NCBI RefSeq assembly: GCF_054482525.1 | Contig: NZ_CM137006.1 | Reading direction: 5' to 3' (one strand) | Length of the DNA: 64,000 nucleotides | Part shown: positions 31,029 through 31,732 of the stretch, piece after piece | Position numbering within the stretch: the first letter of the stretch is position 1 | Layout of the letters: each line of letters opens with the position of its first letter | Program-made: the position numbers and the translations under genes | The notes under the pieces: model-generated | What the model was told of the DNA's origin: nothing | The model's database searches: none | The model's input: only the letters and a program-made list of their open reading frames with translations

Positions 31029-31040
31029 GGAAGGGAAACT

Positions 31041-31090
31041 TGACTTCATATTGTGATGTCATACTATTGATGTCATAAAGTGAAGTCATA
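31041..31090 (+). promoter_or_regulatory. Four tandem TGAnnTCATA repeats overlapping the putative promoter of the toxin-antitoxin operon
   Basis: TGACTTCATA (31041), TGATGTCATA (31054), TGATGTCATA (31068), TGAAGTCATA (31081) at 13-14 bp periodicity; a TTGACT -35-like hexamer at 31040-31045. Confidence 0.45.
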
Positions 31091-31100
31091 AGGACATGCC

Positions 31101-31376
31101 ATGAGAACCCAGGTACAGGCTTTACGGAAGAAACAAAAAAATACATTGGATCAAATAGTTAAATCTCATGTTCCTCAAGGGATTAAGTGGTCTGATATAG
31201 AGTCACTGGTTAAAGCATTAGGCGGAGAAATTAAGGAAGGAAGAGGTTCGCGTTGTAAGTTCATACTAAATATGAGCGTTGCGTGTTTCCATCGGCCTCA
31301 TCCGTCGCCAGATACCGATAAAGGCGCTGTAGAAAGCGTGCGTGACTGGTTACTAAGTATAGGGGTAAAACCATGA
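31101..31376 (+). CDS. HicA-like (YcfA family) mRNA interferase toxin, putative
   Basis: 91 aa; AAGGA RBS; C-terminal ...GRGSRCKFIL...FHRPHPSPDTDKGAVESVRDWLLSIG resembles the HicA core (GSH...HP); 4 bp ATGA overlap with the downstream gene; toxin-first order. Confidence 0.55.
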   Translation: MRTQVQALRKKQKNTLDQIVKSHVPQGIKWSDIESLVKALGGEIKEGRGSRCKFILNMSVACFHRPHPSPDTDKGAVESVRDWLLSIGVKP

Positions 31377-31732
31377 TCAAACTGAAGACACCAAACTCTA
31401 TGGAGATTGCCGGGCAACCTGCAGTTATCACTTACGTGCCAGAACTGAATGCATTTCGTGGCAAATTCCTGGGCTTGTCAGGTTATTGTGATTTTGTCTC
31501 TGACAGCATTCAGGGGCTGCAAAAAGAAGGGGAGCTTTCCCTGCGAGAGTATCTTGAGGATTGTAAAGCTGCGGGTATTGAGCCGTATGCGCGTACAGAA
31601 AAGATTAAGACTTTTACATTACGCTATCCAGAATCGCTGAGTGAACGCCTTACTAATGCGGCTGCGCAGCAACAAGTCTCTGTAAATACTTATATTATTG
31701 AAACGCTAAATGAGCGTTTGAATCATTTATAA
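31373..31732 (+). CDS. HicB-like antitoxin with C-terminal ribbon-helix-helix DNA-binding domain, putative
   Basis: 119 aa; C-terminal KTFTLRYPESLSERLTNAAAQQQVSVNTYIIETLNERL is a typical RHH motif; translationally coupled to the upstream ORF. Confidence 0.55.
   Translation: MIKLKTPNSMEIAGQPAVITYVPELNAFRGKFLGLSGYCDFVSDSIQGLQKEGELSLREYLEDCKAAGIEPYARTEKIKTFTLRYPESLSERLTNAAAQQQVSVNTYIIETLNERLNHL

Follow-up and report, generated by a model that had tools for sequence, protein, structure and literature searches.

The interval between yhhJ and nikR in this Escherichia coli chromosome very probably holds a type II toxin-antitoxin operon, hicAB, with the toxin gene first and an antitoxin, HicB, that carries a ribbon-helix-helix (RHH) domain at its C terminus; its proposed mode of action is set out below. 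The HicA protein belongs to a large, uncharacterized clade with an active site that differs from the one underlying all current accounts of how HicA works. RefSeq already names both proteins as members of the HicA and HicB families, and the pair is not a discovery. As the outcome of a genome scan it is ordinary and already annotated; what is worth following up is the active site, the operator, and the series of natural alleles. A literature search on the RefSeq accessions, on strain PCN033, and on the nikR/yhhJ/rhsB context returned no study of this locus.

Organization of the hicAB operon and its flanks

All coordinates refer to the window, the 64,000-nucleotide stretch of contig NZ_CM137006.1 that was analyzed. 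The part studied here, 31029 to 31732, runs from the first base after the yhhJ stop codon to the last base of the hicB stop codon (Table 1). Both reading frames share the ATGA at 31373 to 31376, in which the ATG of hicB overlaps the TGA of hicA, in agreement with the coordinates and the translational coupling of a 91-aa to a 119-aa frame described in the initial annotation. hicA lies upstream of hicB in a closely spaced operon behind a single promoter-like site, from which one bicistronic, translationally coupled mRNA would be made, and the hicA-then-hicB arrangement recurs in every related locus fetched. That the two frames arose by chance is ruled out by profile matches, conservation, and dN/dS: each gene has hundreds of homologues, and between genera dN is 0.10 to 0.19 in both genes, with synonymous sites (dS) saturated.

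Table 1. Features of the yhhJ-hicAB-nikR region, in window coordinates
Feature	Position	Strand	Remark
yhhJ, ABC transporter permease, left flank	29904-31028	+	RefSeq annotation of the identical PCN033 locus
Candidate sigma-70-like promoter: TTGACT (31040-31045), 16-nt spacer, TACTAT (31062-31067)	31040-31067	+	Consensus scan, 9/12 matches
Four TGAnnTCA boxes, starting at 31041, 31054, 31068, and 31081	31041-31088	.	Found as inverted repeat
Shine-Dalgarno AAGGA of hicA	31090-31094	+	6 nt to ATG; read from sequence
hicA (ORF1)	31101-31376	+	91 aa
V20 codon of hicA	31158-31160	+	Rare substitution (F20V)
H23 codon of hicA	31167-31169	+	Rare substitution (P23H)
G49-S50-R51 codons of hicA	31245-31253	+	
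H64 codon of hicA	31290-31292	+	
H67 codon of hicA	31299-31301	+	
GGGG, likely Shine-Dalgarno of hicB	31362-31365	+	7 nt before hicB ATG
hicB (ORF2)	31373-31732	+	119-aa antitoxin
Perfect 15-bp inverted repeat, 3-nt loop, between convergent hicB and nikR	31787-31819		Repeat search and terminator-like match
nikR, right flank, convergent with hicB	31852-32253	-	

E. coli PCN033, an extraintestinal pathogenic strain of porcine origin, shows 100% identity to the window in this region. The cassette is AT-rich, with a GC content of 36 to 48% versus 52 to 64% in its flanks. Downstream of hicB, positions 31733 to 31851 fold at -24.1 kcal/mol (z -3.7), and the hairpin that they contain is probably a bidirectional terminator; an Rfam scan of the region gave 0 matches. 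In the mechanical list of open reading frames, yhhJ has 402 aa, starts at a GTG at 29820, and overlaps the end of rbbA, versus 374 aa from 29904 in RefSeq, where one base is shared between its ATG and the rbbA stop codon. The discrepancy concerns the choice of start codon only and is not a feature of the locus.

Family assignment and predicted folds

The HicA-like C-terminal core and the RHH motif that the initial annotation had read into the two frames are both found by profile searches. ORF1 matches the Pfam family HicA_toxin (PF07927) with an E value of 3.7e-9 (37 bits), residues 30 to 80 covering model positions 1 to 52 of 58, and it matches phrog_8887, "toxin," with an E value of 2e-25. 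ORF2 matches the Pfam HicB family (PF05534) over residues 60 to 112 with an E value of 2e-15, has weak matches to the Arc and CopG RHH families, and also matches phrog_9151, "HicB-like antitoxin." The same Pfam families are carried by the relatives: PF07927 by HicA homologues and PF05534 by all HicB homologues retrieved. A scan of both proteins against NCBIfam found no matching model. PF05534 ("HicB family") and the phage moron families phrog_8887 and phrog_9151 are the direct sequence families of the pair; they are annotation families only, with no mechanism tied to them. The HicB of Haemophilus influenzae, after which the family is named, was presumably the starting point for PF05534.

Structure prediction gives the same picture. 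The AlphaFold2 model of the toxin, built with 146 homologues, has a pLDDT of 94.8 and begins with two N-terminal helices (residues 2 to 6 and 10 to 20) followed by alpha(30-39), beta(43-46), beta(51-56), beta(59-64), and alpha(74-86). The hicA product is thus predicted to consist of a helical extension of residues 1 to 29 and a dsRBD-like core of residues 30 to 86, the latter with the alpha-beta-beta-beta-alpha fold of HicA toxins. The best PDB matches of this model are HicA proteins (1whz, 5yrz_D, 6g26_E, 4p78_D, and 6hpb_C). For the antitoxin, a confident AlphaFold2 model matches the N-domains of HicB proteins and RHH antitoxins in the PDB; it has the partial RNase H-like N-terminal domain of HicB and a C-terminal DNA-binding RHH domain at about residues 78 to 118. 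At the sequence level the link to solved HicA proteins is weak. In a phmmer search of the PDB the toxin had no match and the antitoxin matched Arc and otherwise just noise, and the profile of the clade gave one weak HicA match, 9svk_A (E value, 0.35); a match of this profile to MazE was spurious, being due to a His tag.

Toxin-first order combined with an RHH-type HicB defines class 4 in the scheme of Gerdes (PMC10865869), and by homology and architecture the operon is assigned to this class, in support of the HicAB module with toxin-first order originally proposed. Class 4 also includes HicA3B3 of Yersinia pestis (4P78), HicAB of Burkholderia pseudomallei (6G26), and HicAB of Neisseria gonorrhoeae. 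With these systems the present operon shares gene order, close coupling, a dsRBD-like toxin fold, a HicB with N-domain and RHH domain, and a promoter covered by repeated or palindromic boxes. Unlike theirs, its toxin is longer, at 91 aa, by an N-terminal helical extension of about 29 aa, has GSR for GSH, and carries an invariant F-H-R-P-H-P-S-P-D-T-D-K-G after beta3. Pairwise, it has no detectable sequence similarity to the solved HicA proteins. ORF1 and ORF2 are therefore filed under the HicA and HicB homologous families and not under the canonical His-dependent mRNA interferases, because the beta2 histidine of the latter is missing.

The operon is not an orthologue of the hicAB genes of E. 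coli K-12 (hicA b4532 and hicB b1438; 6HPB), which lie at another locus, at 1.509 Mb in K-12. The K-12 HicB has an HTH domain (class 3) versus the RHH domain found here, and the K-12 HicA has 58 aa, with its catalytic histidine at His23. An hhalign comparison with the K-12 proteins produced a spurious 13-residue match for HicA (a2 on a1) and nothing for HicB, and it is evidence neither way. As a side observation, some database copies of this HicA in E. coli, Pectobacterium, and Leminorella are named "hexulose-6-phosphate synthase," which appears to be a propagated misannotation.

An arginine at the position of the catalytic histidine

Every HicA toxin characterized so far requires a histidine that opens strand beta2 within a G-x-H (GSH) motif; the residue is His23 in E. 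coli HicA, His28 in Y. pestis HicA3, His24 in both B. pseudomallei and N. gonorrhoeae HicA, and His36 in Streptococcus pneumoniae HicA, and its replacement by alanine abolishes toxicity in all HicA proteins studied (PMC11594946, PMC12297915). The toxin described here has no histidine in this motif, which reads G49-S50-R51. Among 266 relatives, position 51 is arginine in 261 and histidine in 1, and the residues before it are equally well kept (G49 in 263 and S50 in 259). G49 corresponds to the glycine that stands two residues before the catalytic position in characterized toxins (Gly22 of BpsHicA and NgHicA). R51 appears to occupy the catalytic position itself, since the clade profile puts its "rGSr" on the "RGSH" of 9svk_A, the Pfam HicA match is nearly gapless from residue 30, and R51 is the first residue of beta2 in the model; the equivalence is thus drawn from a weak alignment, Pfam coordinates, and predicted secondary structure.

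A second near-invariant segment of the clade, F-H64-R-P-H67-P-S-P-D-T-D-K-G, lies at and after beta3. Its "F-H-R-P-H" aligns to the canonical "V-T-V-P-H/Y," which makes H67 (found in 252 of the 266 relatives) the semi-conserved H/Y of "V-P-H/Y," and H64 (found in 254) stands where the aligned canonical chain 9svk_A has threonine. The gonococcal counterpart of H67, His40, is dispensable (PMC12297915). In the predicted structure beta2 and beta3 form a tight hairpin, for which reason residues 51 and 64 are expected to be cross-strand partners with their side chains on the same face.

How could such a HicA act? RNase activity is not assured, because the histidine essential in characterized HicA proteins is absent. 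In the reading that we prefer, the catalytic imidazole would have moved to His64, the cross-strand partner of residue 51 on beta3, possibly aided by His67, and Arg51 would bind phosphate. The dsRBD-fold toxin would arrest growth by acting on RNA, and the N-terminal domain of HicB would cover its active face and so neutralize it. That the whole clade is a mechanistically distinct HicA lineage, one that either relocated its catalytic histidine to His64 of beta3 (with or without His67) or dropped nuclease chemistry for RNA binding, we put forward as a tentative proposal that may well prove wrong. The GSR...FHRPHP clade counts about 920 representative clusters at an E value of ≤1e-3, from chromosomes, plasmids, and temperate phages. 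Were the proposal true, the beta2-histidine rule, drawn from five or six studied HicA toxins, would fail for a large fraction of annotated HicA proteins, and the automated label "HicA family toxin" may hide different chemistry. In the limited literature that could be searched, no paper tested a member of the clade or remarked on the His-to-Arg substitution.

It could also be supposed that the pair is HicAB by descent and that its HicA is no nuclease at all, acting as an RNA or ribosome binder or as a co-repressor of HicB in a small regulatory or autoregulatory unit. This speaks to the arginine that replaces an essential histidine in nearly all relatives, to the many E. coli strains that keep hicB beside a disrupted hicA, and to the linkage of hicAB with nikR in three enterobacterial lineages. 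We consider it quite improbable. Throughout a very broad clade G49, S50, R51, H64, P66, H67, and P68 hardly vary, as an active site that is being maintained would; the repeated loss of hicA, with hicB spared, is the outcome to be expected of a harmful toxin; and the cassette travels alone on phages and plasmids, as addiction and defense modules do.

A candidate operator over the promoter

The site at 31040 to 31067 would function as the promoter of the operon, as judged from its hexamers and spacing. Four TGAnnTCA boxes lie over it; they overlap the -35 hexamer, overlap or flank the -10 hexamer, and reach into the leader. Only 12 further copies of TGAnnTCA occur in the other 64 kb, and the probability of finding at least 4 in a 48-bp stretch is 2.7e-10. 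Citrobacter and another Enterobacteriaceae lineage also have boxes at about -60, -33, and -20 relative to the ATG, and the same positions are kept in a chromosomal Serratia locus and in a Serratia P2-like prophage, in DNA whose flanking sequence is otherwise unrelated between these genera. Because they are enriched and hold their positions across genera in otherwise unrelated DNA, the boxes are probably the operator of the RHH protein HicB. HicB would repress the operon by occupying all four as RHH dimers. The boxes provide a directly testable candidate operator for this HicB subfamily.

Occupancy of the yhhJ-nikR interval

Homology to K-12 ends exactly at the yhhJ stop codon (31028) and resumes at 31846, 6 bp before the nikR stop codon. 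These blastn breakpoints confirm the statement of the initial annotation that RhsB occupies the nikR-yhhJ interval in K-12. The filler there is a 6.7-kb rhsB-yhhH-yrhC'-yhhI element, in which the rhs toxin locus is accompanied by yhhH, yrhC', and the yhhI transposase; it stands in the slot in place of hicAB, to which it is unrelated in sequence and function, and is not a homologue.

Comparison of the slot across E. coli genomes, as suggested in that annotation, revealed four states. Among 5,426 complete genomes, the hicAB cassette is present in 2,075 (about 38%), always on the chromosome, and the RhsB junction is present in 2,123. In a third state, seen in an O55:H7 strain (locus L003), hicAB is followed by a 5.8-kb GntR/PTS/kinase/aldolase island; strains labeled O111:H2 and O145 probably share this state, as they give the same shortened match. 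In the fourth state the PTS island stands alone; such strains have no remnant of hicAB and carry a REP-like element beside yhhJ instead. The island, located at L003:12754-18363 (E. coli O55:H7 DEC5D), L013:10340-15940, and L014:10340-15940, encodes a GntR regulator, PTS IIA, IIB, and IIC components of the galactitol type, an FGGY kinase, an HPr-like protein, and a class II aldolase, and in many strains it takes up the part of the slot next to nikR, whether hicAB is present or not.

The arrangement yhhJ-hicA-hicB-nikR is the same in Citrobacter, with a HicA identity of 84% (L005-L007). Because of this identical arrangement, hicAB is probably the slot's ancestral content and not a late arrival, and recent insertion into an empty site was rejected on the basis of the same synteny. 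Of the variable insertion hotspot postulated at first, the variability stands, with RhsB, hicAB, hicAB plus PTS island, and island alone as alternatives, but hicAB itself looks like an old resident of the interval. A further Enterobacteriaceae lineage (L009-L011) also has hicAB beside nikR, with an mgtE-like gene replacing yhhJ. We treat the hicAB-nikR linkage as inherited synteny, and no functional link was seen. It may be noted that hicAB is convergent with nikR in three enterobacterial lineages and that NikR and HicB are both RHH proteins. The yhhJ-nikR slot thus offers a clean natural locus with multiple states.

Decay of the toxin gene and the allele of the window

Within E. coli the toxin gene is being lost or attenuated in several lineages and the antitoxin gene is kept. 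The most frequent case is an allele, exemplified by strain 55989, in which codon 2 of hicA is TAA; it is found in 793 genomes. The allele also has a 14-bp deletion that takes out the second operator box together with the -10 hexamer; beyond codon 2 the hicA frame stays open, and hicB is intact. PGAP annotates a 76-aa product of this allele from a CTG codon. The allele site in 55989 (L004:2500-2590) corresponds to window positions 31054 to 31150. Among the HicA products in the protein collection several are frameshifted, and one of these, with the shift in the Ser50 codon, occurs in 6 complete genomes. The frameshift allele P0109 seemed common from its 588 contigs yet is present in only 6 complete genomes. 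Repeated, independent damage to hicA with hicB left intact fits a harmful toxin under relaxed selection. The 793 nonsense alleles with retained antitoxin are useful for studying how chromosomal toxin-antitoxin modules die.

The hicA frame of the window is intact, and its product differs from the common allele in having Q4, V20, S22, and H23. Two of these residues replace strongly conserved ones: position 20 is Phe in 224 of the 266 relatives and position 23 is Pro in 243, and His23 is found in the query only. In comparison with the common O55:H7 allele, WP_001259385.1, all 4 amino acid changes of HicA fall within residues 4 to 23, and HicB differs at 1 residue. The corresponding values, based on very few substitutions, are a dN of 0.019 and dS of 0.017 for hicA and a dN of 0.004 and dS of 0.118 for hicB. 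Within E. coli dN/dS is about 1.1 for hicA versus 0.03 for hicB, a contrast that is only suggestive given the small counts of substitutions.

The HicA copy of the window may be attenuated by F20V and P23H. A stronger version holds that the module is a decaying remnant, an orphan HicB repressor with a toxin made weak or inactive by these two changes. The conservation of F20 and P23, a histidine at position 23 unique to the query, the concentration of changes in hicA, the exact window allele in only 5 of the 5,426 complete genomes, and the outright nonsense or frameshift alleles of other lineages all lean toward it. We nevertheless regard it as rather unlikely, as the frame is open, neither the dsRBD core nor any motif residue is altered, no damage is seen in the promoter, the operator boxes, or the translational coupling, and the changes are confined to the N-terminal extension. 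A toxicity test of the window allele could fail despite real homology, because the canonical histidine is absent and rare substitutions stand at conserved positions. Intact, attenuated, and null alleles that occur naturally in E. coli would be suitable for testing the active-site question.

Relatives on mobile elements and the question of defense

Relatives of the pair are found in a variety of places. A Serratia proteamaculans P2-like prophage carries relatives with 74% identity between gpA and the portal gene (L012:747-8276), and a more distant relative sits at the equivalent place in Burkholderia phage ST79 (Peduoviridae; L019). This gpA-portal interval is a defense hotspot of P2-like phages (PMC9122126), and a defensive function has been suggested for certain HicA contexts (PMC10865869). 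In Ralstonia phage Dina the relative is a moron within the tail module.

Could antiphage defense then be the main role of the operon? An infecting phage would deplete HicB or shut down transcription in the host, and the HicA thus set free would halt translation before the phage cycle is complete, in a form of abortive infection that is compatible with the mechanism preferred above. Placement in the P2 hotspot lends circumstantial support, and no more, to a defensive role; the moron of phage Dina and the proposed HicA contexts also point that way. Stabilization of neighboring DNA, the other role raised in the initial annotation, is as speculative as phage defense. For the E. coli copy we nonetheless judge such a main role to be unlikely. 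A scan of both proteins against PADLOC-DB 2.0 matched no families at an E value of ≤1; the copy lies between housekeeping operons and not in a defense island; its setting is shared with Citrobacter, and 793 or more genomes show it in decay; and the sole validated defensive protein with a HicA domain that was found, the "HicA" system of DefensePredictor, is an unrelated 472-aa fusion.

Outside the enterobacterial nikR context, Serratia aquatilis has the bare cassette between murJ and argS, and relatives are present in 231 plasmid records. The GSR and HRPHP motifs are also present in the phage copies.
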